This document shows, piece after piece, positions 5,997 through 57,189 of a stretch of 64,000 nt of DNA; the stretch's first letter is position 1; each line of letters starts with the position of its first letter. The DNA comes from Candidatus Thorarchaeota archaeon. Its GTDB lineage: Archaea; Asgardarchaeota; Thorarchaeia; Thorarchaeales; Thorarchaeaceae. Made by a program: the position numbers and the translations under genes. The notes beneath the pieces are model-generated. The model searched no databases. It saw only the letters and a program-made list of their open reading frames with translations, and was not told where the DNA came from. The stretch covers positions 13,530 to 77,529 of the forward strand of contig PRDJ01000039.1 of assembly GCA_003345555.1 (NCBI GenBank). The letters are read 5' to 3'.

Positions 5997-7184
5997 TTGA
6001 GCTCGAAAATCGTGATCCTGCAATGCCCTGCATGTGGACATGAATTCTCAGTTGATAGAATCGTTGGATACTGTGCATGCGGTTCTCCTTTGCTGGCCAA
6101 GTACGATACCGATAGCGTGAGAGAGATCGTGTCCTCGCGGAAGTTTCCTTCGTCTGTGAGTTCGATGTGGCGCTACGCGGAGCTGCTTCCTGTCAGGTCA
6201 TGGTCCTCAGTGGTGAGCCTAGGTGAAGGGTGGACACCTATGCTCAGCTCTCGTGGTCTTGCTAGGAACTTGGGAATGCAGAGAGTCTTCATCAAAGATG
6301 AGTCGCGTAATCCAACATTCTCGTTCAAAGATCGAGGGCTCTGTGTTGCCATATCGAAGCACATAGAGCTAGGCGCAGTGTCCTTCGCGCTGCCTTCCGC
6401 GGGCAACGCAGCAGTAAGCATGTGCGCATACTGTGCCGCGGCAGGTGTTCGCGCGCACGTCTTCATGCCTGCTGATACGCCTCCGGTTTTCTTCCGAGAG
6501 TGTGAAATGTATGGCGCAGAGACAATGCGAGTTCCGGGCACGATTGCGGACTGTGGAACAAGAATGAAGAAACTTGCAGGTGATTGGGTCGATTTGTCTA
6601 CAACCAGAGAGCCATACAGGGTTGAAGGCAAGAAGACTATCGGCTTTGAGATTTCCGAGCAGCTGGGATGGAATGCTCCTGATGCAGTTATTTGTCCAAC
6701 TGGCGGCGGAACAGCAATCGTCGGGATTTGGAAAGCATTCAACGAACTCGAGGAAATTGGCTTGGCGGGGAACAAGCGGCCCCGTTTGTACGCGATTCAG
6801 ACTGAGGGCTGTGCCCCGGTTGTGCGCGCAATTGAGAATGGTCAAGACGACATCGAACTGTGGCAGGAGTGTAGAACAAGGGCGTTGGGTCTAAGGGTTC
6901 CAAAGCCCTTTGCAGGGCAACTTATCCTACGAGCAATTCGTGAGTCTGGCGGTAGTGCCTTGAGTGTGTCCGAGTCTGCCATTGACTCAATGCGGGACGC
7001 CGTGGCACGTGCAGAAGGGCTGAATGTCTGCCCAGAGACCGCGGTCGCGTGCTTGGGCCTCAAACGATTGATTGAGCTCGGTAAAGTGCAGACCGATGAG
7101 AACGTAGTCGTCTTGAACACGGGTGCAGGATACCGTTACTCTACATCGATATCGGTCAATGGACGAAATCCAGTATACCTCTGA
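5997..7184 (+). CDS. thrC: threonine synthase (archaeal type with N-terminal Cys4 ribbon)
   Basis: N-terminal CPACG...CACG ribbon as in archaeal ThrC; PLP-lysine motif FSFKDRG; 395 aa PLP fold-type II length. Confidence 0.85.
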   Translation: MSSKIVILQCPACGHEFSVDRIVGYCACGSPLLAKYDTDSVREIVSSRKFPSSVSSMWRYAELLPVRSWSSVVSLGEGWTPMLSSRGLARNLGMQRVFIKDESRNPTFSFKDRGLCVAISKHIELGAVSFALPSAGNAAVSMCAYCAAAGVRAHVFMPADTPPVFFRECEMYGAETMRVPGTIADCGTRMKKLAGDWVDLSTTREPYRVEGKKTIGFEISEQLGWNAPDAVICPTGGGTAIVGIWKAFNELEEIGLAGNKRPRLYAIQTEGCAPVVRAIENGQDDIELWQECRTRALGLRVPKPFAGQLILRAIRESGGSALSVSESAIDSMRDAVARAEGLNVCPETAVACLGLKRLIELGKVQTDENVVVLNTGAGYRYSTSISVNGRNPVYL

Positions 7185-7788
7185 GATCATCATCGCGAAC
7201 CACAGCTTGAGCGGCGTCTGCGACTTCCTGCCTCTCCGGCCTGAATGCTATGGACAGGCCAACTCGTCGAAACACACTGATGTCATTTAGACCATCTCCA
7301 ACAAAAGCAGTCTCCTTGAGAGACACTGCAAAGTGGTCTGCGACTTGTTTGATATGCCGTACTTTCCGGCCCCACTCCACGAGCACCTCCACCTCGCCGG
7401 TCAGCATGCCATTTGTGTGACGAAGCTTGTTCGTCATGACGTAATCTATTCCTACGCGTGCTGCGACGTCGTCGGCGAGGAGATCCACACCTCCGGACAA
7501 AATGGCCACATTGATACCCATTTTCTTGAGAGCACTGACGGTTTCCTTGGCGCCGGGTACCAGCTCGGTTGTTCGGACTATCTCCATGACCCGACTCAGA
7601 GACTTGCCTTTCCACAAGCTTGCATCGGAGTTGGCCCACTGTCGGTATGTAATCTCTCCCGCGAAATACTTGTCAAAGAAGACCCTTCCTTCCTCTTGAG
7701 TACCGAACACCTCATGAAGTCGCCACCATATACTCGTGTGACGCGTCAACGTACCGTCAACGTCGAAAACGACCAGCTTTATTGTCAT
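7156..7788 (-). CDS. HAD-superfamily hydrolase, phosphoserine phosphatase-like (HAD-IB)
   Basis: N-terminal LVVFDVDGTLT (the DxDGT HAD motif I), ~210 aa; convergent with and overlapping the thrC 3' end. Confidence 0.65.
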   Translation of the reverse strand: MTIKLVVFDVDGTLTRHTSIWWRLHEVFGTQEEGRVFFDKYFAGEITYRQWANSDASLWKGKSLSRVMEIVRTTELVPGAKETVSALKKMGINVAILSGGVDLLADDVAARVGIDYVMTNKLRHTNGMLTGEVEVLVEWGRKVRHIKQVADHFAVSLKETAFVGDGLNDISVFRRVGLSIAFRPERQEVADAAQAVVRDDDLRGILDFVH

Positions 7789-7828
7789 CTAAGCACCTGC
7801 AAAGTCATCAAAGGGCAATATGGCCCGA

Positions 7829-8497
7829 CTACTTCTCTGCCTCTCGCTCTTTCTCCTCACGTGCCTCTCGTTCGAGATCTGCCAGAAGGTCGTCAATCCT
7901 TTTCTCTTCGGTGCGAGGTTTGCGGCCAGATTCTTTCTGCTTCTGCTTAGCGAGCGGCGGCAAGACCTTCTCCTTTTCCAGCATGATTTCTGCCTCCATG
8001 GCCTCTAGCTCCTGATTGATTCTCTTTTCCATCTCGACTGTGGTTCCACTCGTGGAGAGGTCTTCAGAGAGCAGTTCGCCTGCCTCAGATATTTGTTCGA
8101 ACGATTGTGTGAGTTTATCCAGCTGCATCTGTATCTCAACCGGGCTGAGCATGGCCTGCGCTTTTGAGAGTGCATCATTCGCTATCTTGAACGCTCCCAA
8201 GACATCAGTCTGGTCTTTTGCCTCCTCGATGTTCATGAGCGCTGTCTCAAGCGTGAGGAATTGCTGACGATATCTGGCCCTGCGGTTGTCCAAATCAAGC
8301 ATGATTGACAGGTGCGACCGGGCCAACGACTTTTCACCCCCGGCCATAGCCTCTTTCGCAGATTTTCGCTCTTCCTGCATTCGCGTTTCGAGCCTGCGAG
8401 TCCTAAGGGTCAGGGCATTCATGGTTCCTTTGATTTCGAGGATTCCTCGTTCGGTGTCCACTTTTTTCTTGCCGCTCAGAAAGCCCATTGCGTGCAC
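7829..8497 (-). CDS. ESCRT-III family protein (Snf7/CHMP/Vps2-like)
   Basis: MGFLSGKKK basic N-terminus, ~220 aa all-helical. Aligns along its length with CHMP2/Vps2 (LRTRRLETRMQEERKSAKEAMAGGE..ARSHLSIMLDLDNRRARYRQQF..ALMNIEEAKDQTDVLGAFKIANDALSKAQAMLSPVEIQMQLDKLTQSFE). Acidic C-terminal helix RIDDLLADLERE resembles a MIM. Confidence 0.75.
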   Translation of the reverse strand: MHAMGFLSGKKKVDTERGILEIKGTMNALTLRTRRLETRMQEERKSAKEAMAGGEKSLARSHLSIMLDLDNRRARYRQQFLTLETALMNIEEAKDQTDVLGAFKIANDALSKAQAMLSPVEIQMQLDKLTQSFEQISEAGELLSEDLSTSGTTVEMEKRINQELEAMEAEIMLEKEKVLPPLAKQKQKESGRKPRTEEKRIDDLLADLEREAREEKEREAEK

Positions 8498-8604
8498 CGT
8501 TCCTATCGTAACCAGCTGAGGTCCTCAGCTGACACATTTAAACGATTGCACATCCGCCCTTCGTCGAAAGAATCGTACCTGATTCGGAGAACAGAGGTCT
8601 CAGC

Positions 8605-9420
8605 ATGACAATAGCCAAAATCCTGAAAGCTGCCTTGGAATATTCAAGAAAGGCAGTACTTGAGAACTTGCAGCGCGCGGCTGAGTCTACAGATAGTCTC
8701 AACCCTTTCGGCGACGTGACTCTTGCGGCAGACATATTGGCAGAAGATGAAATAATCAGAGTATTGCATGAGTCGGGATTAGGCTTTAACATCTTGACCG
8801 AAGAAAGAGGATTGATAGAGGCAGAAAGCCTGCCCGAGTTCTTGGCTGTCGTTGATCCTCTTGATGGCTCGGCAAACTTCGAACGAGGACTCCCCTTGTG
8901 TTGTGGAGGAATATCCGTCATACCATTCTCCGATCAGATGACCACTGATCGAATTGAGACCAGTGTAATCAGTTCGTATTTCACCAAGGACGTCTACGTT
9001 GCGGTCACTGGGAAAGGAGTGAGGCGAAACGGGAAGTCTGTCAGTGTGGCTAGTCCAAAACATGTTGAAGAGTCAGTCGTGTCTTACGATACAAAGGCGT
9101 CTTGGCTGGGAGACTTCGCATCAGGTTCGCTCCGTGTGTTGGGGCACGTGAAGGACATGCGGAGAGCAGGTAGCAATCTGCTCGACCTCTGTTGGACGGC
9201 TTGTGGCGTTCTTGATGCAATGGTTGACCTTAGGGATATTCTTCCCATCGTCCATGTGTCAGGTACACATATAGTCTGTGAAGCCGGTGGGTTTGTGATC
9301 GCTGCAAATGGCAGTCGTTTGTTGCTACCACTACGCATCGATTGCAGAATGAGCTTTGTTGCCGCGTCAACGAAGGAGTTGGCTCGAGAGATACTTCGTC
9401 TGTTTCAGGGTGGTCGGTGA
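8605..9420 (+). CDS. inositol monophosphatase / fructose-1,6-bisphosphatase family protein (SuhB-like)
   Basis: Metal-binding motif VVDPLDGSANF (the IMPase DPxDGTxNF) and ~270 aa length. Confidence 0.75.
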   Translation: MTIAKILKAALEYSRKAVLENLQRAAESTDSLNPFGDVTLAADILAEDEIIRVLHESGLGFNILTEERGLIEAESLPEFLAVVDPLDGSANFERGLPLCCGGISVIPFSDQMTTDRIETSVISSYFTKDVYVAVTGKGVRRNGKSVSVASPKHVEESVVSYDTKASWLGDFASGSLRVLGHVKDMRRAGSNLLDLCWTACGVLDAMVDLRDILPIVHVSGTHIVCEAGGFVIAANGSRLLLPLRIDCRMSFVAASTKELAREILRLFQGGR

Positions 9421-9959: not shown

Positions 9960-10644
9960 TTTGTTGCTCTTCGCGATGGCCCGCCGGGGCTCCCTTTAAA
10001 ACTTTGCCAAAGCTGGAGGCTTGTGTGACACCAGCTCACGCTACTCCGAGTCAATGCCTGGGGCCTGAGAAAGGAGGAGGATCGAGCACTTTTTGCTCTT
10101 GGAGGAGAGAGAGTTCAAGCGGAGAGAACTTGGTCCCAGACAGAATATGAATATGGTATAATGATAGATAAGCGTATGTTGCTCGTAACTTCAGAACGGG
10201 GTGAAATCATCGTGCTATGAGTGCAGTCGCGGATAGTTTCGCTAGAACCGGGACTGAATCGTCGGCTTCGAGGATCCCAGGAAGGCATGTCTACGAATAA
10301 CGACAATGAGATTGTCGCGAGGTCACCATTTTGAAGCTTCACTCCTCGTAGCTAATCATCTGAGACACCACTTGTCAGTCGCCCCTTCTTCATGATGTTC
10401 ACAGCATGGGCCTCCGATTACATTGACCTCGTCAACGTACTCTGTTCGTCGCACCTAACACAAGTCGTTGTTGGCGAAGTTGCGCATTCTCAAGACGGTC
10501 TCATTGCGAACCGAATGTGTACTCCGGAAGGAACCAATCACGCTAGCTCCCTCTTCTAGCGCGTAATCAGTATCCTGCCCATGTTCATTCGGAACAAGGA
10601 GTCTCCGCGCGATATGTTTAAGGCCTGACAAAGGGACCGTCGAA

Positions 10645-16867: not shown

Positions 16868-18094
16868 TCAATGACTCCCCTTGTTGATGCGTCGTTCCAT
16901 TGCTTTCTGGACCCTTTCCTTTGCAATCATCATTGCAACGGCCCTCGGAAGCATCACGACATCACCGCTGATTGAGCTGGTCAACACCAGCTTCGTGTTC
17001 TCCCTGATCTTGGAATCGATCATGGCGAACGCTTCATCGATGCTCTTGCCAAGATACTCAGCATAAGAGCCTATCACGCCTCCAGAGTTGGCAAGCATAT
17101 CGGGCAGAATTAGAATGCCCTTCTTGAAGAGTATCTCTTCTCCGGCTGGAGTCGTCGGGTTGTTTGCACCTTCAACTATGAGCCCTGCTCTGATCTTGCT
17201 TGCATTGCGGTCCGTGATGACATTTCCAACCGCAGCCGGAATCAGCACATCACATTCTACTTCGAGAACCTCGTCTCTGCCAATCTCTTTGGCTCCCTTG
17301 CAGTGTTTACAGGAGTGTGCCTCATCTGTTGCGTACGCATGCTTCATTGCTACGTCAATGTCAATGCCTTTGGCACTGTAAGCTCCTCCCCAGAAGTCTC
17401 CTATGGCTACGATTTTTGCACCCTTGCGAACGAGATACTTAGCCACTTCCGATCCCACATTGCCAAATCCATGGATTGCGACTGTGAGACCATCGACTGT
17501 CTTTTGGACCGGGACAAACTCAGAGAGTATGCCTAGCGTTGTCTCTATACCGACCCCAAGTCCGAAACCCGTCGTTCCAAGTTCATGAGGAATTCCTCCC
17601 ATTCTCTCAGGCTTTCCAGTTGCAGCCTTCTTGTCGCCAATGACTTCGACAAATGCTGCGATTTCTTCTTCACCTACGTTCATGTCAGGGGCAGAAACCC
17701 ATTCGTCTGGCACGTGAGCTGATACAGCTCTTGCGAATGACCTGACATAGGACAGCTTGTCAATTGAATATGGATCTGCATTAATGCCGCCTTTGGCTCC
17801 TCCGAATGGAAGACCCGCAAGTGAGCATTTCCAGGTCATTGTCCTCGCTAGGCCGAAGACTTCATGCGGCGTTAGGCCTGCTCTGATTCTAAAGCCGCCC
17901 TTTCCTGGGCCCAGTGCCGTATTGTCTATGATGAGCATCCCTTCCATACCCAGGTTCGGGTCATAGACACGAAGGACCTTCTCAGGGCCCCATTTGTCAC
18001 TGAAAGCAGCAACGTTAACATCCTCGAGCATTCGCTCGAGCATAGCCATCTGCTGCGATTGAACTTCTGTCGATGCATCCTTCAATGTTGCCAT
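16868..18094 (-). CDS. gdhA: glutamate dehydrogenase (paralog 1)
   Basis: GGAKGG, the K-containing active-site region and the GFGNVG Rossmann motif; 408 aa. Confidence 0.9.
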   Translation of the reverse strand: MATLKDASTEVQSQQMAMLERMLEDVNVAAFSDKWGPEKVLRVYDPNLGMEGMLIIDNTALGPGKGGFRIRAGLTPHEVFGLARTMTWKCSLAGLPFGGAKGGINADPYSIDKLSYVRSFARAVSAHVPDEWVSAPDMNVGEEEIAAFVEVIGDKKAATGKPERMGGIPHELGTTGFGLGVGIETTLGILSEFVPVQKTVDGLTVAIHGFGNVGSEVAKYLVRKGAKIVAIGDFWGGAYSAKGIDIDVAMKHAYATDEAHSCKHCKGAKEIGRDEVLEVECDVLIPAAVGNVITDRNASKIRAGLIVEGANNPTTPAGEEILFKKGILILPDMLANSGGVIGSYAEYLGKSIDEAFAMIDSKIRENTKLVLTSSISGDVVMLPRAVAMMIAKERVQKAMERRINKGSH

Positions 18095-18349
18095 TCTTCA
18101 TCGCTCTTCTGGCTTCTTTGTTGAAGCTCGTGCCTTTCTCGCCGAGTGGAGTACACTTAACTCCGGTGGACCCCCGACCGGAGACCAGTGCCAAAGAATG
18201 TACCAAAGTGGCTTGGAAAGTGCATTTGCATACCATTCATCCAGACGTTATGTGCAGAAAGTACACTTATAGTGGGCTTGCCTACCGCTGGCATTTTTGG
18301 TATTGCATTCACACAAAAGTATTAATTATGTCACATTGGTCCCATCTGT

Positions 18350-19432
18350 GTGCCAGATCTTCTATCCGACAAGAGCAATCTCACTATTCTTGAGGAATTG
18401 GTATCGGGACAAGCGGTTGGTGTCAATCTTAGCGAACTTTCTCGGGTTCTAGGTCATCATAGGCACACAATTGCAGGCAGGGTTCAAGACCTCATGGACC
18501 ACGGAGTCCTAGATGTCCCACATGTTCCGTTCATCGGCTTGGGCAGGGTCTACCCTCTGTTCGTGATTCTATACCTTGAAGCTCCAGATGACGCTCGATT
18601 TGAGAAATGGATTAAGGAAGACCCGTATATATTCGCGGCTTTCAGAACTAGGCAATCAGACTTCAACACCCTGCTGTTCGTATACCACCAGGACTTGACG
18701 AGCTATCTCCGGTGGAGGGAGTCCCTTCCCTCAATCATGAGAACTGAGTATGACATTCCCGAAGAGATGGCCTCATTTCTATCTAGTTCATTCTATCACT
18801 CTAACGAACTGACAATCAAACATGAACCCTCTTCTGGGTTGAGTCTTATGATGAAGGAGGCTCACCATAACAACTCTCAGCATCTGAACGGACTTAGTCT
18901 CGCAGACCTTGATTTCGAGATACTGAAGTGCCTTACTTCCGGTGTGGGTCTCAAGATCAATGAAGCACATTTGTGTCAGAAGACGGGATTGCATCGAAAG
19001 ACTGTCGAGAAGCGAATTGCGTCGATGATGGAGGAAGAATACATCTCCCGCCCGGTGTGCAATTTTCCCAACTACTTCGTCCCTCCTGACTACATACTGA
19101 CACTGTCGCTGGTAGAGGTGAAGAAACAGTGGGAGAAAATCGTGCGCGAGATTGTTGTCGACCCGCATGTTCCCATGGCTCTCAGGACCGTGCAAGGAAG
19201 GTACAATCTCCTAATACTCGGAAACCACGAGAGCATAGGCGACTATCTTCAATGGGACGAAGGATACAGGGAGAGATTCCCTGGGGCATTTGGTGGTGCC
19301 AGCGTTACATACCTGACACCCCGCATGACCATCTCCTTCAACTACAATATCGTTGCTCTGATGTTCATCCGGAAGAAAATGGAGATGTATAAAGGAAGAA
19401 AGTTCAGGGAGCTTCTTGAACCAAGACACTAG
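18350..19432 (+). CDS. tandem Lrp/AsnC-like HTH transcriptional regulator
   Basis: Two modules, each with an AsnC-type HTH (SNLTILEELVSGQAVGVNLSELSRVLGHHRHTIAGRVQDLMDHGVL and DLDFEILKCLTSGVGLKINEAHLCQKTGLHRKTVEKRIASMMEEEYI) followed by ~100 aa. A TATA-like attaattat lies ~25 nt upstream of the GTG start. Confidence 0.55.
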   Translation: MPDLLSDKSNLTILEELVSGQAVGVNLSELSRVLGHHRHTIAGRVQDLMDHGVLDVPHVPFIGLGRVYPLFVILYLEAPDDARFEKWIKEDPYIFAAFRTRQSDFNTLLFVYHQDLTSYLRWRESLPSIMRTEYDIPEEMASFLSSSFYHSNELTIKHEPSSGLSLMMKEAHHNNSQHLNGLSLADLDFEILKCLTSGVGLKINEAHLCQKTGLHRKTVEKRIASMMEEEYISRPVCNFPNYFVPPDYILTLSLVEVKKQWEKIVREIVVDPHVPMALRTVQGRYNLLILGNHESIGDYLQWDEGYRERFPGAFGGASVTYLTPRMTISFNYNIVALMFIRKKMEMYKGRKFRELLEPRH

Positions 19433-19787
19433 ATCATCGCATTCGAGGGTTCATGCGGAGAACTAGTCTTCCAGCGTGAGCTCGCGAGAAATAAAGCCAC
19501 ACTGAAGTCCTTTGGCCTTCATCGATAGTGGCCGTATGCTCTGTGCTCGGACACGATTGCACGAGACCGCCAGAATGACATATCAGTCCATCAGTCTGAG
19601 CCAAGATTGCTGCATTTGGAATCAGAAATGCTCTTGGGTGCAAGAAGCTCGTAAAAACAGGGTCCTGATTGTCCACGGTTGCTATTTGACCGTGCATCTT
19701 TAATAGGTGGAGCTTCAAGCCGCGGATGGCTTCCTTATCACTTCTCAAGGGAGGAATATCAACTTGGAAGAGGAAACACACGGCAGC

Positions 19788-21032
19788 ATGGCTAACAACC
19801 CGTTCGAAATCGCTCAGCACCAGATTGACATCGTCGCGAAGCGATTAAAGGTCGATCCGGGCATAATTGAAATCATAAAACAACCCAAACGCGTCTTGGA
19901 AGTGGCAGTTCCCATAAGGATGGACAACGGTCAGTTGCGGGTCTTCCGCGGTTACAGAGTCCAACACAATGATGCGCGCGGTCCCTTCAAAGGTGGCATC
20001 CGGTACGGTCCAGGAGTAAACATGGATGAGGTGAAGGCACTCGCTACTTGGATGTCAATGAAAACAGCAGTAATGGACATTCCATACGGTGGAGGAAAAG
20101 GCGGAATCATATGCAACCCCAAAGAGATGAGCAGCGCCGAGCTTGAGAGGCTGACCCGCAGATTCACCGCCGAGATTAGCTCTATCATCGGACCACTGAA
20201 GGATATCCCTGCTCCCGATGTGAACACGAACCCGCAGACGATGGCTTGGATAATGGATACCTATAGCGCTACTATGGGCATCGCTGAGCCCGCAGTTGTG
20301 ACAGGTAAGCCCATCTCCCTTGGGGGATCCCTCGGTCGAAACGAAGCCACTTCTCGTGGTGTTGTGATATGTGCCAGAGAGGCAGCCAAGGTGACCGGAG
20401 CAAAGCTTCAGGGCGCCACTGTGGCAGTAACTGGATACGGAAACGTTGGCTACAATTCGGCATGGCTTGCTCAAGAACTTCGCATGAGAGTTGTCGCTTG
20501 TAGCGACTCCCAAGGCGCTATCTACAATCCAGATGGTTTGGATGCTCGAAAAGTCGGTGATTTCAAGGCAAGGACTGGCACGGTCAAGGGTTACCCTGGA
20601 TCGAAAGAGATTCCCATTGACAAAGTGGTCGAACTGGATGTCGATTTTCTGTTCCCCTGCGCTCTGGAAAATGAGATTACATCGACTAACGTAGAATCAG
20701 TGAATGCGAAGATTATCATTGAGGGCGCAAATGGTCCCACCACACCCGAAGCTGATGAAGTTCTATACAGAAATGGAACCTTCCTTGTTCCTGACATCTT
20801 GGCCAATGCCGGAGGAGTGACGGTCTCTTACTTCGAATGGCTTCAGAACCTACGGCGCGAGTATTGGACTGAACAGGAAGTTAATGTTAAACTCGAGGCA
20901 CGCATGGTGAAGGCATTTCATGAAGTCTATGACATTGCCAAGAAGGAAAACGTCCACATGAGAACGGCAGCATTCATGCTGGCCGTGGGCAGAATAGCAT
21001 CAGTTATGGAGACGCGTGGTCTGTTTCCATAG
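19788..21032 (+). CDS. gdhA: glutamate dehydrogenase (paralog 2)
   Basis: MANNPFEIAQHQ is a typical GDH N-terminus; GGGKGG and GYGNVG motifs. The ORF-track GTG start at 19707 falls inside the TATA-like ctttaatagg and is probably an over-extension. Confidence 0.9.
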   Translation: MANNPFEIAQHQIDIVAKRLKVDPGIIEIIKQPKRVLEVAVPIRMDNGQLRVFRGYRVQHNDARGPFKGGIRYGPGVNMDEVKALATWMSMKTAVMDIPYGGGKGGIICNPKEMSSAELERLTRRFTAEISSIIGPLKDIPAPDVNTNPQTMAWIMDTYSATMGIAEPAVVTGKPISLGGSLGRNEATSRGVVICAREAAKVTGAKLQGATVAVTGYGNVGYNSAWLAQELRMRVVACSDSQGAIYNPDGLDARKVGDFKARTGTVKGYPGSKEIPIDKVVELDVDFLFPCALENEITSTNVESVNAKIIIEGANGPTTPEADEVLYRNGTFLVPDILANAGGVTVSYFEWLQNLRREYWTEQEVNVKLEARMVKAFHEVYDIAKKENVHMRTAAFMLAVGRIASVMETRGLFP

Positions 21033-21049
21033 AGTTCCATAGGGTACTC

Positions 21050-21088
21050 GGAGGACTATCCATCAGGATGGTCCTCCACTTCTTTTAC
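21050..21088 (+). terminator. hairpin GGAGGAC-(14 nt loop)-GTCCTCC followed by a T-rich tract, 18 nt after the GDH2 stop
   Basis: ggaggactatccatcaggatggtcctcc followed by acttcttttac, read directly from the sequence. Confidence 0.45.
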
Positions 21089-21305
21089 ACATCGGCATGG
21101 ATCATGCGGTGGAAACACTGGAGAATAAGTGGCACTAGGGTGAGCACGTGCACCAGCAAAAATCAGTGCCTCGAACGAGGAGGCACGAGTTGCGCATGAT
21201 GTCTCCAACATTCTCACTAATCACTGGCCAAATTGCATTAAGATGGGCCGAAGGAGTCCTCGTGAGGAGGTCCCTCCTTCGGTCAGACAAATAACAACTA
21301 CACTA

Positions 21306-22568
21306 CTATGGGAATATGCCTCTGAGCTCTATCGCCCTAGCGACTCTTTTTACCGCCAGTGCGAGCGCAGCAGTTCGAAGAGTCTTGATGTTGAACTCCA
21401 TTGCAGTCTTATTGACTTCGTCAAATGACTTGACTAGGATGTCTCGAAGCGCCTGGCTAACCTGCTGCTCACTCCAGAAGAAGTGCTGCAATCCCTGAAC
21501 CCATTCGAAGTAGGACACAGTAACACCGCCTGCGTTTGCAAGTACGTCCGGAACTACTGTCGTTCCTTTTTCTGCCAGAATAGCATCGGCTTCCGGAGTA
21601 GTGGGACCGTTGGCCCCTTCAACTATCAGGGATGCCTGAATGGAATCCGCATTGTCCTCTGTAATTGCGTCGCCCATAGCGCATGGCGCAATAATGGGCA
21701 CATCCAGTCCGAAGAGCTCTTTGTTGGTTATGGAGTCCGCACCTGGAAAACCTTCAACCGACCTCTTCGGGTGCTTTGCGGCATAGTCGGCCAGCTTTGG
21801 GATATCGAGCCCGTGTGGATCGTAGGCACCACCGAAGGCATCTGCTACAGCTACGACTTTGAAGCCGCCTTGATGAGCGAATCTGCAAAAGTAGCTGCCC
21901 ACGTTGCCGAAGCCTTGCACAGCAAGCTGTAACCCCCTAGTGCTTCGACCTTTCTGTCTCAAGGCTTCCTCCATCACATAGAACAGCCCTCTTCCCGTCG
22001 CCTCAGTTCTGCCAACACTGCCACCGATCTCCACTGGTTTGCCTGTAACGACGCTAAGCTCGGTGTGACCAGTCAGCATGGAATATGTGTCCAGCATCCA
22101 CGACATAACCTCTGGGTTCGTGTTCACGTCCGGAGCAGGTATGTCTGATTCTGGCCCAATCATGTTGATCAGACTGTAAGTGAATCTTCGAGTCAATTTC
22201 TTTAGCTCACCAGAGCTGAGCTTCCACGGATCGCACACGACACCGCCTTTGGCCCCGCCGAATGGAATATTGACCACTGCAGTCTTCCAAGTCATCAATG
22301 CGGCCAAGGCTTTCACTTCGTCGAGGCTAAGGTCGGGCGAATATCGGATTCCGCCCTTGCATGGTCCTCGGTGATGTGAGTGCTGTACCCTGTAACCTTC
22401 AAACATTTCAAGATGGCCGTCGTCCATGATAACTGGGAAATAGGTTATCAGGATCTTATCCGGCTTCTCGAGAATCTTGAGTATGTTCTCGTCTAGCTTA
22501 ATCGCTTCAGCTGCAAGGTGCAGCTGAGTCAGAACGTTCTCCCAAGGATTAGATTCTGGATTTGACAT
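21306..22568 (-). CDS. gdhA: glutamate dehydrogenase (paralog 3)
   Basis: MSNPESNPWENVL start with GGAKGG and GFGNVG motifs. The ORF-track start at 22712 adds 48 non-conserved aa. Confidence 0.9.
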   Translation of the reverse strand: MSNPESNPWENVLTQLHLAAEAIKLDENILKILEKPDKILITYFPVIMDDGHLEMFEGYRVQHSHHRGPCKGGIRYSPDLSLDEVKALAALMTWKTAVVNIPFGGAKGGVVCDPWKLSSGELKKLTRRFTYSLINMIGPESDIPAPDVNTNPEVMSWMLDTYSMLTGHTELSVVTGKPVEIGGSVGRTEATGRGLFYVMEEALRQKGRSTRGLQLAVQGFGNVGSYFCRFAHQGGFKVVAVADAFGGAYDPHGLDIPKLADYAAKHPKRSVEGFPGADSITNKELFGLDVPIIAPCAMGDAITEDNADSIQASLIVEGANGPTTPEADAILAEKGTTVVPDVLANAGGVTVSYFEWVQGLQHFFWSEQQVSQALRDILVKSFDEVNKTAMEFNIKTLRTAALALAVKRVARAIELRGIFP

Positions 22569-22879
22569 AGTCAACCGTCCTGAGGTCTTTATAGTGGAAC
22601 CCGTTCGATTTGGTATTAAACGCTTTCCTAGGTACTCCTCGCCATTCGCGTGGAAACACTGTGTACAGGAGATGGCTTGAGTTTTGTAGAATCCTTCATG
22701 TGATATGCACACGCAGCTATCCCCCGTTCGTGCGAAATCTGTTCGACCCGGAAAGCGGTCTCAGCGCCCTGTGCCACTACCTGCCTTCGAATCGAACAAC
22801 ACTTCAAGGGATTCAGATTCTGCAAACAACAGACTGCAACAGAACTGCAATTCTAACGAGCCCGTGGATGCATCCTCTT

Positions 22880-31218: not shown

Positions 31219-33816
31219 GTGAGTCGAACGGGGAAGCCAAAGGCTGTGAGTGGAAGTACTATCGAGGCTATTCGAATGGCGTCCGCATCGGTTCTGGGTT
31301 CCACGACCGGACATGGCTATCCAATCGGTGATGCGGTCGGTGTGGGCAGCATGATGGAGGCCAACTCTGAAGCTGTTGCAGGAAATGTGGCACCACTGAT
31401 TCTCTCGGTAAGCACACCTTTGAAGGCCTCTGAAGAGCTTGAACTTCTGTCTATGGAGTGGGACCTCGAAAGGACGCCGGGACCCGAGATACTGCCTGAA
31501 CAGCTCGTTGTTGCTGGGGGGTATGCCCGGGGTGTTAGTTCACATGTTTCCATGCTAACTTGGGAAAAGGGCATTGCGGATCCCTTCAATATCGAAGAAC
31601 GAGTCGAGCTAATCTCAAAGAAGCTTGCTGACCTAGAAGCGGCAACATCGGCAAGCGGGCTCGGGGTTGAAAACGAAGGTCTAGCCGTCCTCCGTAAGTT
31701 CTCGGGCAGATTGAATCGGACTCTGTTCCTGGATATGTTAGATCGTCAGTTTCAGGGGTCTTGGAGTACGCTCAGGATCAAGCCTGAGGATGTCGATGTA
31801 GAACTTGTGATTAGGCAGAGCTATCGGAAGGATTTCACGACTATGCCTCCCGGTGTGAACATCTCCGAACGCTCAAGTCCTGAATTCTTGCTTCCAGATG
31901 CTGATGATGCTGCGCTAACGGAGCACTTCAAACACCGAATCCTGAGCCCAAGCGCAGTAAGAGCGCTGTCCGTTCAAGTGCCCGAAATCGGAAGGGCGAT
32001 TCTCAAGGAAATGAACAGATATGCTTACAGCGGCGAGGAGGCTGATATAGCTCGAGCGCTTACGGCGGCGCTCGTCCGGTTCTTGGGCCGGACCGATATG
32101 CGATTTGCCGAACTGGACAGCATAGCGAAGGAAGCTGTCGATTTCACAAGCACTGCAAAGAACGCGATTAGGATCCTTGGAGATGCCGTAGAGCAGCATG
32201 TTTCCTCTGGTACGAGTCTTCGTCTAGCCGAGCACAAAGAGCGTCTTGATACTGCAGTTGAATCCTTAATCGTTAAGTTACCCAGCCCCACTCGCGATGT
32301 AGTGACTTGGTTCCTGCATGAAATGACCTCTGCCATGATGAAGTCTGCCGGAGGTGACCTGCCGGGTGAGGTCGAGTTCAAGGCTTGGCAACTCAAGAGC
32401 GCGACGGGATATTTCCTCACCTACGCTAGGAAAGTCAGCGACTACTTTGCTGAGCAGCTCTATCGTTTCCTCATCGTTTCATTCGCACGGGCAGGCATCA
32501 TGAATTCGCTTCACAGTCTTCATCAGGAAATGCTTGAGAAGGGTCTGAGCCCCACAGATCTGGTATTGTTTAATATGCTCTATGATGAGCTTCTGTCAAA
32601 GTTCAAGTCGGCTCTTGGCCGACGGGCGTGCGAAGGAACGACAGAGCGCAACCCAGGCCAGCTCATGGTAGCAATAGTCCAAGAAATCGTCGATGAATTC
32701 TCACGGGATAATCCGCGGAACATGGCTCAGTTTAGGAACATGGTTCAGGTCGCACGTTCCGAGATAGAGGCAAAACACAAGGTCGAGGAGCGAGATGGCG
32801 TACAGGGTCTCGACCGACTAGGAGAAGCACTGTTGGTCCGACTCTCTGACCTTGAGACTCTCGTCACACAAACGCTTCAGGATATTGCAGATACCCTTCT
32901 CAGCAAGAGATTCATCACTCAACTCGCAGATTTGACGACAACAGAGCAATCCAAATTGTCGGCCGAATTCATCAGACTAGTCGAGCTGCAGGAAGGTAAG
33001 TCGGCGCAATGGAAGAGCGAAGCAAGAAAGATAGTAAACGATGCTCTGCAAGGAGCCGCCATGGGAAAGGGCACAGCCCCGAGGTTGCTTACGCTAACAC
33101 AGAATCTACACGAGGCCATCCGTACCGGCCCTTCCACCGAGTCAGTCCTACAACGCGTGAAATCTGAAGCCGAGAGGCTCCAAGCAGAATACGAGCGCGA
33201 AGTCGAGGAGTGGGAGATAGCGTGTTCTCGGATAGAATCAGAGAACGTGCGTATTCGGGATGAGAATGAAACAAGAGAAGGTCTCCTGAAGCAGGCAAGC
33301 GCTGACTATGCTCGCGAGACGGCTCAATATGAGCAATTGAAACAGGCATATGACCCGTCTACCGTCCCAGGTTCTCCTCCTGAACCGCCTGAAACCCTCG
33401 AGCAGCGTGTTCTTAGAATCGAGCGGGCGCATCCCGTACAGATGCCCAAGTCGATGCCCACGAAACCAGAGGCGCCTGAAGAGCTTCTCGTTGCTGATGA
33501 GCTGCGCGATACGATTGCCGCCAACATCGAGACAGCAAGCAGAGACGAAAAATCATTACAGAGTATTCTCATAGATCGACTGAATTCCATGCGCGATCAA
33601 CCGGCGAACCAGATGGGGGATCAGGTCGTCAATATCGCTGACGGATTTCATGAGTACCTATTGGAGTCAACAATACGAAGCATCGGAAAGCTGCTGCCGC
33701 GTGCTTCACGGGTCTATCTTAAATCGCCTGAAGAACCCGACCTGATTTATCTCGTGAGCTACGAATACAAGAAGGACGAGATGATGGTTCAAATCGGCAG
33801 CAATTTCCTGAGGTGA
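31219..33816 (+). CDS. large hypothetical all-helical protein (865 aa), no recognisable domain
   Basis: GTG start 7 nt after an aggagg SD-like element. Long uninterrupted ORF with a helical/coiled-coil composition (EAERLQAEYEREVEEWE...); no P-loop, no TM. Four nt separate it from the next gene. Confidence 0.6.
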   Translation: MSRTGKPKAVSGSTIEAIRMASASVLGSTTGHGYPIGDAVGVGSMMEANSEAVAGNVAPLILSVSTPLKASEELELLSMEWDLERTPGPEILPEQLVVAGGYARGVSSHVSMLTWEKGIADPFNIEERVELISKKLADLEAATSASGLGVENEGLAVLRKFSGRLNRTLFLDMLDRQFQGSWSTLRIKPEDVDVELVIRQSYRKDFTTMPPGVNISERSSPEFLLPDADDAALTEHFKHRILSPSAVRALSVQVPEIGRAILKEMNRYAYSGEEADIARALTAALVRFLGRTDMRFAELDSIAKEAVDFTSTAKNAIRILGDAVEQHVSSGTSLRLAEHKERLDTAVESLIVKLPSPTRDVVTWFLHEMTSAMMKSAGGDLPGEVEFKAWQLKSATGYFLTYARKVSDYFAEQLYRFLIVSFARAGIMNSLHSLHQEMLEKGLSPTDLVLFNMLYDELLSKFKSALGRRACEGTTERNPGQLMVAIVQEIVDEFSRDNPRNMAQFRNMVQVARSEIEAKHKVEERDGVQGLDRLGEALLVRLSDLETLVTQTLQDIADTLLSKRFITQLADLTTTEQSKLSAEFIRLVELQEGKSAQWKSEARKIVNDALQGAAMGKGTAPRLLTLTQNLHEAIRTGPSTESVLQRVKSEAERLQAEYEREVEEWEIACSRIESENVRIRDENETREGLLKQASADYARETAQYEQLKQAYDPSTVPGSPPEPPETLEQRVLRIERAHPVQMPKSMPTKPEAPEELLVADELRDTIAANIETASRDEKSLQSILIDRLNSMRDQPANQMGDQVVNIADGFHEYLLESTIRSIGKLLPRASRVYLKSPEEPDLIYLVSYEYKKDEMMVQIGSNFLR

Positions 33817-33820
33817 TTCA

Positions 33821-36265
33821 ATGTCAAGCTCTTGGATACTCAGAACTCGTCAGATGAGTGAAGCTGGAAAGGAAATCCTTCTGAGAGAAGCGCTCGCTTC
33901 TCATATGAGGAACACACGCGATCGACAGTTTGTCGCAGAGCTCCTGAAACAGAGATTGCCTCTGGAAGACATTGTTTGCCTCTTTGCAGCTTATTACCTC
34001 ACGAGCTATCAAGACGTGAGGCTGAGGGGACATGAATCCTTTGAGAACGTTCCCGGCGAACAGAAGGATCGGGTAGCGGCTGAGTCGCGGAGACTTCTGG
34101 AACTGGAGATACGCGGGCTCTTGGGTAACAAACAGAAAGAAGAGATGGACGTTGCAAGACTCATCAGCGAATTCATAGTTGAATTCTGTGATGAAGTCGT
34201 GAGACCTGACTCGTCAAACCCTCAGGCAGGGATTGAAGTCACTAAGCTGCTGCAATCGTATGTCAAGAGAATTCCTAATGACTACTCGCCAAACCATCAT
34301 ATCGATTTCATCAATGGTGTTACAGGCTGGGGGTCTATATGGAGAGACGAGATCTATGAGAAGGCATCGGGGCTCAAAGAGTCATCCCTGACGCTCAGAG
34401 AGGAGCTGCTTAAGGAGCGTGAGCCGGAGATACCCGAAACAGCTGTTCTTCTTAGGTGCATTACACGTTTGCTGGGACATACTACGTACCTTCAGGGCCC
34501 GTTGAGCCCCGGTGATATCGATAATAGCAAGTGGGAGGAGATTGCCCGAGCAGTAACCCAGAATATCGCCAAGAGCGGACAGGGGCTGCAAGCGCTGAGG
34601 AAAGCCCATCAGATTCGTCTAGAAGCTCTTGATGCCATCGAGAGGGAATTTCAAACCCCGACTTCCCTTGAGGAATTCGAGAATCGAGTCGGCGATTTTC
34701 TGGCGAAGCGAATTGCCGAGGAGATTGCAGCTAATCCAAATGACGCGTACTTTCTCTTGGGGCACTTGCTTGGCCTCAACCCAAATGATGTCAAAGCGGC
34801 ACTCAGACCGAAAGGAATCGCCAGCCCAACTGACCTTGTGTCTGGGTTCGGCGCACTGACCGCGGGAGCACCTGAGGATGTTGGGCGCACCCCAGCGGAA
34901 AAGGGTGATTTGGAGGACATGGACCGCTCGCTGAAAACATTGGACAAGATCGAGCAGACCCTTGAGAAGTCTGTGAAGGGTATGCTTCGTTCCCGCGGTC
35001 TCAAGTCTTCCGAACTCGACAAGATATCCCTCCAACTTCTCACCAAAGAGCGAAGCAGCCTCATAGGAATCGAGATTGTTGTATTGGAACAGTTGAAGAA
35101 GATGGTACGTGTTCCTCCTCCGCAAGAGATTGCCCGATTAATCAAACTCCGCGAGGACGTACAGAAAGGTGCCCTGACTTCTTCGGGTGTCTCCTCAGGA
35201 CCACAAGTCAGCCGCCAGCTGAAGCAAGATGAGACAATCCGTTCTCTTAAGCTGGATATAGTCTGGCACCTGATGATAGGCCTGTTTACGAACCTGACTC
35301 GTGTAGTAGAAATGTACGTGCGTTCCAAGCAGGACATTCTTCGTATCAAAGCGCTTCTCAAAAGCATCTACGAGAAGACCGAGAGTGAATTGCAGGTCTA
35401 CCGAGAAGAGATACTTTTCGACTTTGCCATCGTACGAATCCAAGAGATCAAGTGTATTTGCCCTGAGTTGGACACCCTTTCCCTTTGGGCTTGGTTCCAT
35501 GCGCGGCTGTCAGGCGAGGACATGGATTCTGCTAAGTCTGAGTTCACTGGTTCGTCAAGTTCTGTGTTTGAGGGCGTGGTCAAAGCCCCTCTCAGAATAG
35601 CTGGTCTTGAATTTGATAACTACGCTATAGCTTTCGACGTGATGAACAGATTCCTAGTGAGGGAGAAAAGGGCAAAGCAGGCTAAGGAAGAGGTTGCGGT
35701 AGAGACGAAGCTTGAAGAACAGAAAATGATAGAAACCAAACGGAAGGAGCTCGACGTCCTCACATTTATCTATACTAAGGCTCACACCGTATTCAAGGCC
35801 ACGGGCAGGACCGGTCCCAAAGGCTTGGAATGGACATCAACTGATAGTTCCAAATGTGCGAATCTCCTGAGTCTGTACTTGAGAACCAATCGGGGCCGAG
35901 CCATATGCACGGCATGTGGGTCAATGGCTAAGGAGGGAACGTGTCCTAATCATGGTTCAGAGCTTGTAAATGCGAGTTCCGACTTGGACAACTTGGCGGT
36001 GTTCATAATGCAGGGAATCTCCGAAATCAAGACTGGCCTTATCGGGCCGTCTGCTGAATCCATGTCGTGGGAGAAAGCGAAGGCCGTCGTGCAGAAAGAA
36101 ACTAGCTTGCTCAAGCAGAAAGGCAAGCTTGACAAGAAGGCGAACTTGAAGCTTCTCTTGCCGGGTGAGATAGACTATGTGGTCGGCCCAGCAATGGCGG
36201 CCGTCGTGGCGCAGTACTTCAATGAGTCACTTCAGTATGCCGCTCGTCGGGCACGCTTGGCATGA
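33821..36265 (+). CDS. large hypothetical all-helical protein (814 aa) with one Cys2-Cys-His knuckle
   Basis: ATG preceded by gaggtga; coiled-coil stretches; CTACGSMAKEGTCPNHG near the C-terminus; no NTPase motif. Translationally coupled to the upstream 865-aa gene. Confidence 0.6.
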   Translation: MSSSWILRTRQMSEAGKEILLREALASHMRNTRDRQFVAELLKQRLPLEDIVCLFAAYYLTSYQDVRLRGHESFENVPGEQKDRVAAESRRLLELEIRGLLGNKQKEEMDVARLISEFIVEFCDEVVRPDSSNPQAGIEVTKLLQSYVKRIPNDYSPNHHIDFINGVTGWGSIWRDEIYEKASGLKESSLTLREELLKEREPEIPETAVLLRCITRLLGHTTYLQGPLSPGDIDNSKWEEIARAVTQNIAKSGQGLQALRKAHQIRLEALDAIEREFQTPTSLEEFENRVGDFLAKRIAEEIAANPNDAYFLLGHLLGLNPNDVKAALRPKGIASPTDLVSGFGALTAGAPEDVGRTPAEKGDLEDMDRSLKTLDKIEQTLEKSVKGMLRSRGLKSSELDKISLQLLTKERSSLIGIEIVVLEQLKKMVRVPPPQEIARLIKLREDVQKGALTSSGVSSGPQVSRQLKQDETIRSLKLDIVWHLMIGLFTNLTRVVEMYVRSKQDILRIKALLKSIYEKTESELQVYREEILFDFAIVRIQEIKCICPELDTLSLWAWFHARLSGEDMDSAKSEFTGSSSSVFEGVVKAPLRIAGLEFDNYAIAFDVMNRFLVREKRAKQAKEEVAVETKLEEQKMIETKRKELDVLTFIYTKAHTVFKATGRTGPKGLEWTSTDSSKCANLLSLYLRTNRGRAICTACGSMAKEGTCPNHGSELVNASSDLDNLAVFIMQGISEIKTGLIGPSAESMSWEKAKAVVQKETSLLKQKGKLDKKANLKLLLPGEIDYVVGPAMAAVVAQYFNESLQYAARRARLA

Positions 36266-38220: not shown

Positions 38221-38256
38221 GGAAAAACGCCTGAAGGATCTTGGCGATTCAAAGGT

Positions 38257-46402: not shown

Positions 46403-47047
46403 TCACTTCATGCCAGCTATTTGCCTATCAAGATCCTCAAGCTGCGAATCCAGTTCGGCTTCCTTGGTCTTGTAGTCCTCTTCTGGAATGTATCCTCTCA
46501 TGTAGTCAAAGCGCAAGTCAGTCAAGGCAGCCTTCAAACGATCCTTCTGTTGCAGAAGGAAGTCGAGTTGGTCGCTAGAACCTGCAGGCGCTGCTGGAGC
46601 TGGAGCAGGAGCTACCTTTGCTGCGGGTGCAGCAGGCGCTGACTTCGCTGGGGCCGGAGCTAGTGCCGATTTCGCGGGAGCGGGTGCTGGCGCAGGCTTT
46701 GGCGTAGGTGCTGGAGCTGCTTTTGGAGTTGCAGCAGCCTTCGGAGGAGCTGTCGGTGCAGCCCTCGGTGGCGCAGTCGGGGCAGCAGCCTCTGCCGACA
46801 ATGAGCTTGGTTGTACTGCCTCCATAGTCTCCATGTTACGCCTAAGAGTGTCAATCTGGTCAGCAATCTGAGTAAAGCTATCATTGATGGTCTGATTAAT
46901 CGCGGTCTTCATCCTTGCCAAGTTCTCTGCCAGCTGATCGGCAAGCTTCTTTGTCTCCGCGACCTTGTTAGCAAAGCTTTCTATCGCCCTGAGCTTCTGG
47001 TTCAGCTCTTCCATTTGTCTTTGAATAGCGCTAAAATCGAAGGCCAT
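46403..47047 (-). CDS. coiled-coil protein with Pro/Ala-rich low-complexity linker
   Basis: N- and C-terminal amphipathic helices flank an (AP/PA/AK)n stretch (46560..46800, GC-rich low-complexity DNA). Confidence 0.5.
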   Translation of the reverse strand: MAFDFSAIQRQMEELNQKLRAIESFANKVAETKKLADQLAENLARMKTAINQTINDSFTQIADQIDTLRRNMETMEAVQPSSLSAEAAAPTAPPRAAPTAPPKAAATPKAAPAPTPKPAPAPAPAKSALAPAPAKSAPAAPAAKVAPAPAPAAPAGSSDQLDFLLQQKDRLKAALTDLRFDYMRGYIPEEDYKTKEAELDSQLEDLDRQIAGMK

Positions 47048-56733: not shown

Positions 56734-57189
56734 GCGACTCCCTGATCAGCCTGCTGGTGAACTCAGAGGTCGTCGCCGGCAACTCACTTTCCGGCCCATT
56801 GGCTTGGATAGTCGTGCCATGTGCAAGTCTTTGATTCCAACACCTTAAGCTTATCAATAAAGAACGCAGATGAACGACCGTCTTGCCAAGCGCGTCGCGA
56901 TATGGCTGACTGCACGACAATCGCGAAATCGCGTGCTCCAACGATTCTGCCGCACGGAGGGCTTTGGTGATTTGAATCCGAAGTCACGGTTCTGCAAGTG
57001 GTCAACCGCCGCATGTGTCGGATGGCCAAAAAAAGGAACGGCTTTGCGACCAAACGAATGGCTTTGTACGGAATTGCTTATTATGCGAAGCCAAACAACT
57101 GGGCGTCATTCCGAAGTGAGCCGGTCAGGCCGTCTGATAGCTATCCCGTATCCATCCATCGTAGGGAACGATGCTGGAGGTAGTGATTG

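Follow-up and report, generated by a model that had tools for sequence, protein, structure and literature searches.

A Thorarchaeota gene for a B-type ESCRT-III protein in its usual place, detached from the Vps4 cluster and next to a HAD phosphatase gene

Introduction

[quoted passage not shown] The locus that raises this question lies on contig PRDJ01000039.1 of a Candidatus Thorarchaeota (hereafter Thor) metagenome-assembled genome (MAG; GCA_003345555.1), in a 64-kb stretch of DNA that we analysed as a whole and call the window. A preliminary description had placed at 7829-8497 a CHMP2/Vps2-type ESCRT-III gene between genes for a HAD phosphatase and an inositol monophosphatase (IMPase), unlinked to any Vps4 or ESCRT-II gene. 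It had considered this dispersed layout unusual and had kept a PspA/Vipp1-superfamily member as the alternative. We report here that this is an ordinary Thor gene for a B-type ESCRT-III protein (ESCRT-IIIB), in its usual place, real and already known. Earlier coverage of Thor and Asgard ESCRT-III is reportedly to be found in Spang 2015 and Zaremba-Niedzwiedzka 2017.

In the nomenclature followed here, the ESCRT-III proteins of Asgard archaea and eukaryotes form two clades, the A type (ESCRT-IIIA), with CHMP1, CHMP2, CHMP3 and IST1 (Vps46, Vps2 and Vps24), and the B type, with CHMP4/Snf7, CHMP5/Vps60, CHMP6/Vps20 and CHMP7 (Souza et al. 2025, Sci Adv). The literature already covers the family and subfamily, the ortholog in Thor and the separation of its gene from the Vps4 cluster (Lu 2020, Hatano 2022, Frohn 2022, Makarova 2024), and includes a tabulation of the neighbourhoods, at ±5 genes, of all Asgard ESCRT genes (Makarova et al. 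2024).

Family and subfamily of the window protein

The 219-residue product of the gene matches the Pfam Snf7 profile (PF03357) at 52.3 bits (gathering threshold, GA, 27.3; E 6.9e-14), its residues 19-182 covering positions 3-166 of the 171 in the profile. PspA_IM30 (PF04012) did not match it in the Pfam search even at E <= 10, no NCBIfam model matched it, and the best PspA score among its relatives was 10.5 bits (GA 33.9). A family profile was made from an alignment of 17 sequences (A1), a locus search with which recovered mainly Thor orthologs; a more diverse family alignment (A2) was also used. When the A1 profile was run against PDB chains, with comparator controls behaving as expected, no PspA or Vipp1 chain was found at E <= 1. 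In Foldseek comparisons, the best matches were an Asgard ESCRT-IIIB (9ftl) and Loki CHMP4-7 (9fn1), and the top matches were all ESCRT-III; PspA and Vipp1 ranked 13 or lower, with TM-scores of 0.23-0.31 against 0.5-0.66 for ESCRT-IIIB. The window protein is ESCRT-III proper, not PspA/Vipp1, and the earlier assignment to the Snf7 family was borne out, the Snf7 profile scoring clearly and that of PspA not at all.

A stress protein of the PspA/Vipp1 family, the bacterial type of the ESCRT-III superfamily, would be in keeping with the automatic name 'phage shock protein A' that the Joint Genome Institute (JGI) pipeline gives to many orthologs, and with the presence of PspA and Vipp1 structures among the weak fold matches. 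Against the silent profile, the empty structure search and the low fold ranks, however, these points count for little, and the chance that the protein is of this kind is negligible. The label is found on orthologs P0002, P0008, P0027 and others although PspA profiles do not match them, and its use for ESCRT-IIIB orthologs is a systematic mis-annotation.

Within ESCRT-III, a single-sequence search of solved structures returned B-type proteins only, namely Heimdall ESCRT-IIIB (E 4e-6), a Loki Vps20/32/60-like protein (E 0.016) and yeast Snf7. With the A1 profile, the same B-type proteins came first, Heimdall ESCRT-IIIB (9ftl) at 91.6 bits (E 4.7e-25), the Loki Vps20/32/60-like protein (9fn1) at 51.6 bits (E 8.4e-13) and the yeast Snf7 core at about 45 bits (E about 1e-10), while the best A-type protein, CHMP1B, reached 36.7 bits (E 2.9e-8) and CHMP3, also of the A type, 27 bits. 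A neighbour-joining (NJ) tree with bootstrap, computed without eukaryotic sequences, separated the A and B types with 100% bootstrap support. The window protein fell on the B side with Heimdall IIIB, Lokiarch_16760 and other B-type proteins, its Thor family forming a clade of its own (86-98% bootstrap), and every Snf7 protein whose gene adjoins a Thor Vps4 gene was of the A type. Since sequence, profile, tree and fold comparisons all agree, we assign the window protein to the B type (ESCRT-IIIB; the Vps20/32/60 or CHMP4-7 class). Its N-terminal sequence, MGFLSGKKK..ERGILEIK, resembles those of CHMP6/Vps20, which is a lead rather than a test.

The preliminary description had instead read the protein as aligning over its full length with the CHMP2/Vps2 type, that is, as an A-type protein with a C-terminal MIT-interacting motif 1 (MIM1). 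Its C-terminal helix, with DDLLADLEREAR, is indeed loosely MIM1-like, and A-type structures such as CHMP1B and CHMP3 are present among the weaker profile matches. However, the three B-type references score far higher, and the protein lies outside the fully supported A clade. The real Thor A-type protein is encoded by a separate gene that adjoins Vps4; in strain AB_25 this is ThorAB25_09000, which has no tblastn match in the window and scores only ~32 bits with the window protein in blastp. The published ortholog of the window protein is classed as ESCRT-IIIB or Vps20/32/60. From profile scores, the comparison with ThorAB25_09000 and the NJ tree, the A-type reading is refuted, and we hold it to be highly improbable.

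Gene start and upstream signals

The ESCRT-IIIB gene is on the reverse strand. Its mechanical open reading frame (ORF), 7829..8497 (-), opens at a GTG at 8497 and would yield 222 residues. We chose the ATG at 8488, giving a gene at 7829..8488 (-) whose 219-residue product is supported by the ORF, the Pfam Snf7 match, orthology, and the AlphaFold2 (AF2) model with its fold matches. This ATG is taken to be the real start. A protein deposited for a Candidatus Thorarchaeota MAG (C4K47_05030; P0001) has the resulting sequence at 100% identity, and a conserved GGTG precedes the codon. The latter motif, which resembles a ribosome-binding (Shine-Dalgarno-like) site, is at 8495..8498 (-), 7-10 nt upstream of the ATG, and GGTG is found 6-10 nt before the start codon in all of the 38 orthologous loci examined. 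The ORF described earlier is real and on the reverse strand, but its start moves from GTG 8497 to ATG 8488.

Further upstream, a putative BRE/TATA promoter (transcription factor B recognition element and TATA box), CAATCGTTTAAATG, can be read from the sequence at 8535..8548 (-), 47-60 nt before the ATG. A BRE/TATA-like core, CAAT-N-GTTTAAATG, is present at the same distance (47-60 nt) from the Snf7 start in most orthologous loci, as are TATA-like boxes at -52..-58. Across all Thorarchaeia sampled, the B-type gene carries a predicted BRE/TATA promoter of its own.

Between the TATA box and the start codon, the window also has, at 8513..8531 (-), an inverted repeat of 9 bp without mismatch, CAGCTGAGG-A-CCTCAGCTG. 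We considered this palindrome as an operator and rejected it, as it occurs only in the window and, in degenerate form, in the closest relative (L037), and is probably incidental. This relative harbours the closest species-level ortholog (93% identity; 10001..10381 in CAVSBO010000003.1), which is broken off after 126 codons. Because the downstream sequence still aligns, a frameshift or a mis-assembly of that MAG is a more probable cause than gene loss.

Protein architecture and conserved motifs

The AF2 model has helices at residues 5-49, 53-113, 116-140, 152-173 and 193-218, with a mean predicted local distance difference test (pLDDT) score of 75 and values above 90 in the hairpin. The modelled helix order is the ESCRT-III layout, namely a long hairpin, then the helices alpha4 and alpha5, which are shorter, and finally a flexible tail with a terminal helix. 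The hairpin of alpha1 and alpha2-alpha3, corresponding to the polymerisation core, spans codons 5-113 (8150..8476 (-); pLDDT mostly > 90). Codons 116-173 (7970..8143 (-)) encode the acidic, autoinhibitory half with alpha4 (116-140) and alpha5 (152-173), as delimited by the AF2 helices and by charge. The net charge amounts to about +8 for residues 1-80 and to about -13 for residues 81-180, making the N-terminal half basic and the C-terminal half acidic.

At the N-terminus, codons 1-9 (8462..8488 (-)) encode the hydrophobic and basic motif MGFLSGKKK, identified by its conservation in A1, which is complete at F3 and K8 and reaches 90% or more at M1, G2, L4 and G6. The motif presumably inserts into the membrane or binds to it, by analogy with the N-terminal hydrophobic residues that have been proposed to dip into the bilayer (Souza et al. 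2025). Both this N-terminus and the helical core had been recognized in the preliminary description, and the conservation and the model agree with it.

The acidic, MIM-like C-terminus that it had also described holds in part. In the linker that follows alpha5, predicted to be disordered (residues 175-192, pLDDT < 50), codons 176-178 (7955..7963 (-)) form a MIM2-like proline motif, LPP, whose L176 and P177 do not vary in A1 and have a conservation of 90% or more in A2; it is presumed to contact the MIT domain of Vps4. Such MIM2-like motifs have been reported in Asgard Vps20/32/60 proteins (Lu et al. 2020; Frohn et al. 2022). The C-terminal helix, at codons 193-218 (7835..7912 (-); from the AF2 model), includes DDLLADLEREAR (199-210) with an invariant L205. 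The MIM1 consensus is (D/E)xxLxxRLxxL(K/R), and DDLLADLEREAR has its acidic start and leucines but not the RLxxL(K/R) core, so that the terminal helix is there but carries only a fragmentary MIM1. An analysis that took in 'Thorarchaeota strain OWC' and AB_25 noted that proteins of the Vps20/32/60 type (CdvBa2) carry MIM2 and only a 'fragmented MIM1' (Frohn et al. 2022), a pattern with which the invariant L176-P177 pair and the terminal DDLLADLEREAR agree.

Whereabouts of the other ESCRT genes in Thorarchaeota

The ESCRT proteins of Thor AB_25 are listed by locus tag in supplementary file 4 of Hatano et al. 2022 (Nat Commun): ThorAB25_08990 is SB, ThorAB25_09000 ESCRT3A, ThorAB25_09010 Vps4, ThorAB25_09020 Vps25, ThorAB25_09030 Vps22 and ThorAB25_07240 ESCRT3B. 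The last of these (MGFLSGKKKVDAERGILEMKGTMNALTLRV...) has 72% identity with the window protein and 92% with the ortholog in SMTZ1-45. It shares with the window protein its length, the MGFLSGKKK start, the VLPPL motif and the LADLE(K/R)EA C-terminus, and differs from it by species-level divergence only, the window representing a different Thor lineage (the C4K47 MAG). Like the window gene, it is encoded well apart from the clustered genes for SB, IIIA, Vps4, Vps25 and Vps22 (08990-09030), at a distance of about 176 locus tags, and that the B-type gene of Thor stands alone could therefore already be read from the published tags.

With Thor AB_25 Vps4 as a query, we collected 120 clusters at >= 80% identity, consistently labelled Thorarchaeota. 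In SMTZ1-45 and two other assemblies, the Vps4 context consists of genes for an SB-family protein (505-536 aa), a divergent A-type Snf7 (202-205 aa), Vps4, Vps25 and Vps22 (252-270 aa), and this block is flanked by genes for TldD/PmbA and the arginyl- and aspartyl-tRNA synthetases (ArgRS and AspRS). No B-type Snf7 gene was found within 10 kb of the cluster in these assemblies. In SMTZ1-45, the B-type gene (L032) and the Vps4 cluster (L056) are on different contigs; matching of Vps4 and Snf7 loci by assembly prefix revealed no shared assembly besides this one. In the window, neither Pfam nor tblastn with the Baldr and Thor AB_25 ESCRT proteins detected Vps4, Vps25, Vps28 or a second Snf7, and no Vps4 or Vps25 gene was found in the flanks of 38 genome and 51 metagenome loci of ESCRT-IIIB.

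The absence of linkage to Vps4 and ESCRT-II noted in the preliminary description is thus confirmed for the window, but the layout is not unusual, as the stand-alone position is invariant across ~90 Thorarchaeota loci and the locus tags were already published. As for a Vps4 partner, whose presence in the genome had been raised as a point to verify, Vps4 is abundant and conserved in Thorarchaeota, as seen in the other Thor genomes.

In the closest non-Thor relative, from Baldrarchaeia, the ortholog (~33-35% identity) is inside a Vps25-Vps4-IIIA-IIIB-UEV/Vps23-Vps28-x-EAP30 cluster. Since it is still in the canonical cluster there, the Thor layout reflects a relocation of the B-type gene. The loci that a Baldr Vps4 probe mostly returned (L047-L054) were considered as Thor and rejected, their Vps4 being only ~46% identical to that of Thor AB_25 when the orthologs of Vps4 within Thor share no less than 80% identity, and they therefore provide no evidence for a second B-type paralog in Thor. 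They represent another Asgard lineage with a complete ubiquitin-ESCRT supercluster (e.g. L047, 785..17543), which comprises a pair of B- and A-type Snf7 genes and genes for Vps4, Vps25, Vps22, an SB-like protein, Vps28, UEV, ubiquitin, E2, E1 and a RING protein. One of them, L049, is labelled Thorarchaeota at NCBI, a label that looks wrong given the ~46% identity of its Vps4.

A conserved arrangement with two phosphatase genes

Downstream of the ESCRT-IIIB gene and in the same direction is a gene for a 210-residue HAD-IB hydrolase resembling phosphoserine phosphatase (7156..7788 (-)). It scores 152.3 bits with TIGR01491 (archaeal phosphoserine-phosphatase-like HAD-IB), just above the cut-off of 151.9, and 127 bits with SerB TIGR00338, below the cut-off of that model; its catalytic motifs DVDGT and GDGLND are intact. 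The divergent upstream neighbour, at 8605..9420 (+), encodes a 271-residue phosphatase of the IMPase/FBPase family (Pfam Inositol_P and FBPase), whose NF009321 score of 147.7 bits is below the cut-off of 264. Both neighbours had been named in the preliminary description, and these matches uphold its calls. Beyond them come genes for threonine synthase and for a pair of AAA and VWA proteins of the ChlI/ChlD-like type, of which the former is not Vps4.

The arrangement IMPase(<-)|ESCRT-IIIB(->)HAD(->) is kept in 38 of 38 species-level genome loci and in 51 of 51 metagenome loci with enough flank. The HAD gene adjoins Snf7 in every locus with enough flank, and the IMPase-family gene is upstream and divergent in nearly all loci. 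The triad persists at Snf7 identities of 53% (L096), 45% (L099) and 35% (L101), including L099, where the adjacent block of threonine synthase and AAA-VWA genes has moved. At 32% identity (L044), the IMPase-family gene is absent and only the Snf7->HAD pair is left, with the two genes 18 nt apart. More broadly, the whole block of ~15 genes is syntenic across Thor.

In the window, the spacer between Snf7 and HAD is 40 nt long (7789..7828 (-)), with no T-run and no TATA box, and it provides a GGTG motif for the HAD gene. The corresponding gap is 3-42 nt in 33 loci, and a T-run of at least five is found in two of them. From this short spacing and the absence of terminator signals, we infer that ESCRT-IIIB and HAD are probably co-transcribed. 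The Asgard ESCRT papers cited here hold no discussion of the IMPase|ESCRT-IIIB->HAD arrangement that we could find, and its class-wide conservation may be the only point that is new.

The EAP30-like gene and other features of the window

The window also contains, 41 kb from the ESCRT-IIIB gene, the EAP30-like gene pointed out in the preliminary description. Located at 49722..52118 (+), it encodes a 798-residue protein, not part of the ESCRT-IIIB unit, whose C-terminal ~200 residues form a double winged helix of the Vps22/SNF8 type. The EAP30-like region corresponds to about residues 570-790 (tblastn with Baldr EAP30, E 1.4e-17). The Pfam EAP30 score, 16.5 bits, is below the GA of 26.8; the match to human SNF8 in the PDB has an E value of 2e-9 over residues 570-783, and the identity to the Vps22 protein ThorAB25_09030 is 34%. 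No Pfam match was found in the N-terminal ~570 residues, which contain coiled-coil stretches. The canonical Thor Vps22, by comparison, has 252-270 residues and its gene adjoins Vps4. On these sequence features, the 798-residue protein is a second, long Vps22 (ESCRT-II-like) paralog outside the canonical cluster. The EAP30-like region does exist, but it belongs to such a paralog and not to canonical Vps22, and the gene therefore gives no sign that the core ESCRT set is scattered.

Next to the Vps22-like gene, at 47145..49117 (-), an Arf-family small GTPase of 290 residues, with an N-terminal extension of ~120 residues, is encoded by a gene that shares 19 nt with the end of the gene upstream of it, which codes for a 372-residue protein without a Pfam family; the two look like an operon. 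A Cys-rich protein of 166 residues is encoded at 49198..49698, between this pair and the Vps22-like gene. At 46403..47047 (-) is a gene for a 214-residue protein with coiled coils at both ends and a long Ala/Pro-rich linker between them, which has a weak, sub-threshold match to the CdvA coiled-coil domain (23.3 bits, GA 30).

Elsewhere in the window, three paralogs of the Glu/Leu/Phe/Val-dehydrogenase family are encoded within 6 kb (16868..22712), at 16868..18094 (-), 19707..21032 (+) and 21306..22712 (-). Two adjacent genes at 31219..36265 (+) code for large proteins of 865 and 814 residues that match no Pfam family at E <= 0.01. They are followed, at 36817..39705 (+), by two tandem paralogs, each consisting of an aldolase of the dihydrodipicolinate synthase (DHDPS) family fused to a formaldehyde-activating-enzyme (Fae) domain. 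A giant ORF at 57187..64000 (+) exceeds 2,271 codons and has a signal or transmembrane segment at its N-terminus as well as weak internal repeats; the 57-64 kb region appeared poor in ORFs because this ORF runs off the end of the window. An Rfam scan of the 64 kb revealed no family at gathering score and detected no rRNA, tRNA or known non-coding RNA.

Comparison with other ESCRT-III proteins

The best sequence, profile and fold match of the window protein is ESCRT-IIIB of Heimdallarchaeota AB_125 (PDB 9ftl/9ftm; Souza et al. 2025), which has the same helix layout and belongs to the same B-type clade, although the two are only about 23-25% identical. The Heimdall protein binds anionic membranes, forms flexible filaments and recruits IIIA (Souza et al. 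2025). Its gene is part of an ESCRT set fully clustered with ubiquitin genes (Hatano et al. 2022), in contrast to the detached Thor gene with its HAD partner.

Lokiarch_16760 of Lokiarchaeum GC14_75 (PDB 9fn1, of the same sequence; 'CHMP4-7' in Melnikov et al. 2025, EMBO J) is likewise of the B type; its N-terminus is basic and its alpha5 is followed by a proline motif, but its pairwise similarity to the window protein is low (E 0.016 with a single sequence). Its gene is also away from those for Vps25, Vps4 and the A-type protein (Lokiarch_37460-37480; Hatano et al. 2022 supplement). No sign of a HAD partner was obtained for it, the contig seen for the Loki-like B-type relative P0140 spanning 1.7 kb. 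Supplementary file 4 of that work gives Lokiarch_16760 as ESCRT3A and Lokiarch_37480 as ESCRT3B, the reverse of its Thor labels and of the usage of Souza 2025.

Eukaryotic Vps20/CHMP6 and Snf7/CHMP4 belong to the same B-type clade as the window protein in the phylogenies of Souza et al. 2025 and Lu et al. 2020. They differ in that one Thor gene does the job of four eukaryotic subfamilies and in that the Thor proline motif deviates from the MIM2 consensus. We know of no evidence for N-myristoylation in archaea. Within Thor itself, ESCRT-IIIA (ThorAB25_09000 and the cluster Snf7 of SMTZ1-45; Vps2/24/46 class) is of the Snf7 fold family as well, is close to the window protein in size and presumably forms co-polymers with it. 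It differs from the window protein by its subfamily, by its divergent gene next to Vps4 and by the low blastp score mentioned above.

Discussion

This work shows to which family and subfamily the window protein belongs, its orthology, the layout of the genes and the conservation of the motifs. We consider it very likely that the window gene, as the ortholog of ThorAB25_07240, codes for the single B-type ESCRT-III subunit of this Thorarchaeote and fulfils the corresponding role. Experimental work on related proteins gives an outline of that role. Thor AB_25 Vps20/32/60 was purified for isothermal titration calorimetry (ITC) with the Vps4 MIT domain, and its proline-rich, MIM2-like motif was modelled in the MIT groove (Lu et al. 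2020). Yeast two-hybrid assays reported interactions between Vps25 and IIIB, Vps4 and ESCRT-III, and IIIA and IIIB (Hatano et al. 2022).

By homology with Heimdall ESCRT-IIIB and Loki CHMP4-7, both studied in vitro, we infer that the window protein binds membranes and polymerises into filaments; binding to Vps25 and to the Vps4 MIT domain and recruitment of the A type would follow from what the literature reports for orthologs. As a soluble monomer, the protein would be autoinhibited, with its basic alpha1-alpha3 hairpin held against acidic alpha4-alpha5. Recruited upstream probably via Vps25/ESCRT-II, it would open on a negatively charged membrane with the help of MGFLSGKKK and polymerise into flexible filaments. 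The polymer would then recruit ESCRT-IIIA, leading to tubulation and constriction, until the MIT domain of Vps4 grips the MIM2-like LPP at 176-178 and the C-terminal helix and the polymer is disassembled. The partners (a Znr-PH-CC-SB protein, ESCRT-IIIA, Vps4, Vps25 and Vps22) would be encoded together elsewhere, as in other Thor genomes.

Several points weigh against this account. The mechanism is drawn from homologs, the window protein itself being known from its sequence and predicted structure alone, and the Vps4 cluster of this MAG is expected from other Thor genomes. VLPPL does not fully match the MIM2 consensus of eukaryotes and TACK archaea, a caveat also raised by Lu et al. 2020 (mBio). 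The tree behind the subfamily assignment is a simple NJ tree without eukaryotic sequences, and A and B names need care, two Loki paralogs being labelled in the Hatano 2022 supplement opposite to the Thor ones. Co-transcription with HAD is deduced only from spacing and absent signals.

A different reading of the locus is that the protein has been neofunctionalised: having left the ESCRT cluster, it would work with HAD-IB, and perhaps with the IMPase, in a Vps4-independent or lipid-linked role. In one version of this proposal, membrane coating or repair would be coupled to the provision of serine and inositol as head groups of anionic lipids in archaea. The persistence of the Snf7->HAD pair down to 32-35% Snf7 identity in rearranged surroundings (L044, L099 and L101), the gaps of 3-42 nt, usually without terminator, and the separate Thor clade are in keeping with it, and the Baldr ortholog, still in the canonical cluster, makes of the relocation a discrete event. 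A lipid link is also conceivable from the requirement of Heimdall IIIB for at least 40% anionic lipid in vitro (Souza et al. 2025). However, the window gene represents the only B-type gene found in Thor, where the cluster has the A type only, which implies that it must also supply the canonical B function; moreover, it retains the MIM2-like motif and the terminal helix, and its AB_25 ortholog was used in the yeast two-hybrid and ITC assays with Vps4. The adjacency itself may be neutral in a block of ~15 genes that is syntenic across Thor, and the HAD protein looks like an ordinary small-molecule phosphoserine phosphatase near threonine synthase. We regard neofunctionalisation as quite unlikely and retain a canonical ESCRT-IIIB subunit as the identity of the protein.

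What this analysis adds to published knowledge is the correction of the subfamily to the B type, the recognition of the EAP30 gene as that of a paralog and the exposure of the 'phage shock protein A' mis-annotation. The relocation of the B-type gene into a unit with two small-molecule phosphatases might still be functional, through co-regulation of what is most likely the membrane-nucleating subunit with enzymes that set the supply of serine and inositol (anionic lipid head groups) or another phospho-metabolite signal, an idea that we put forward tentatively and consider unlikely. If it is true, ESCRT-IIIB expression would be controlled separately from the Vps4/IIIA/ESCRT-II cluster, and the arrangement would open a way to learn how the nucleating subunit of ESCRT-III is controlled in Asgard archaea apart from the other parts of the machinery.

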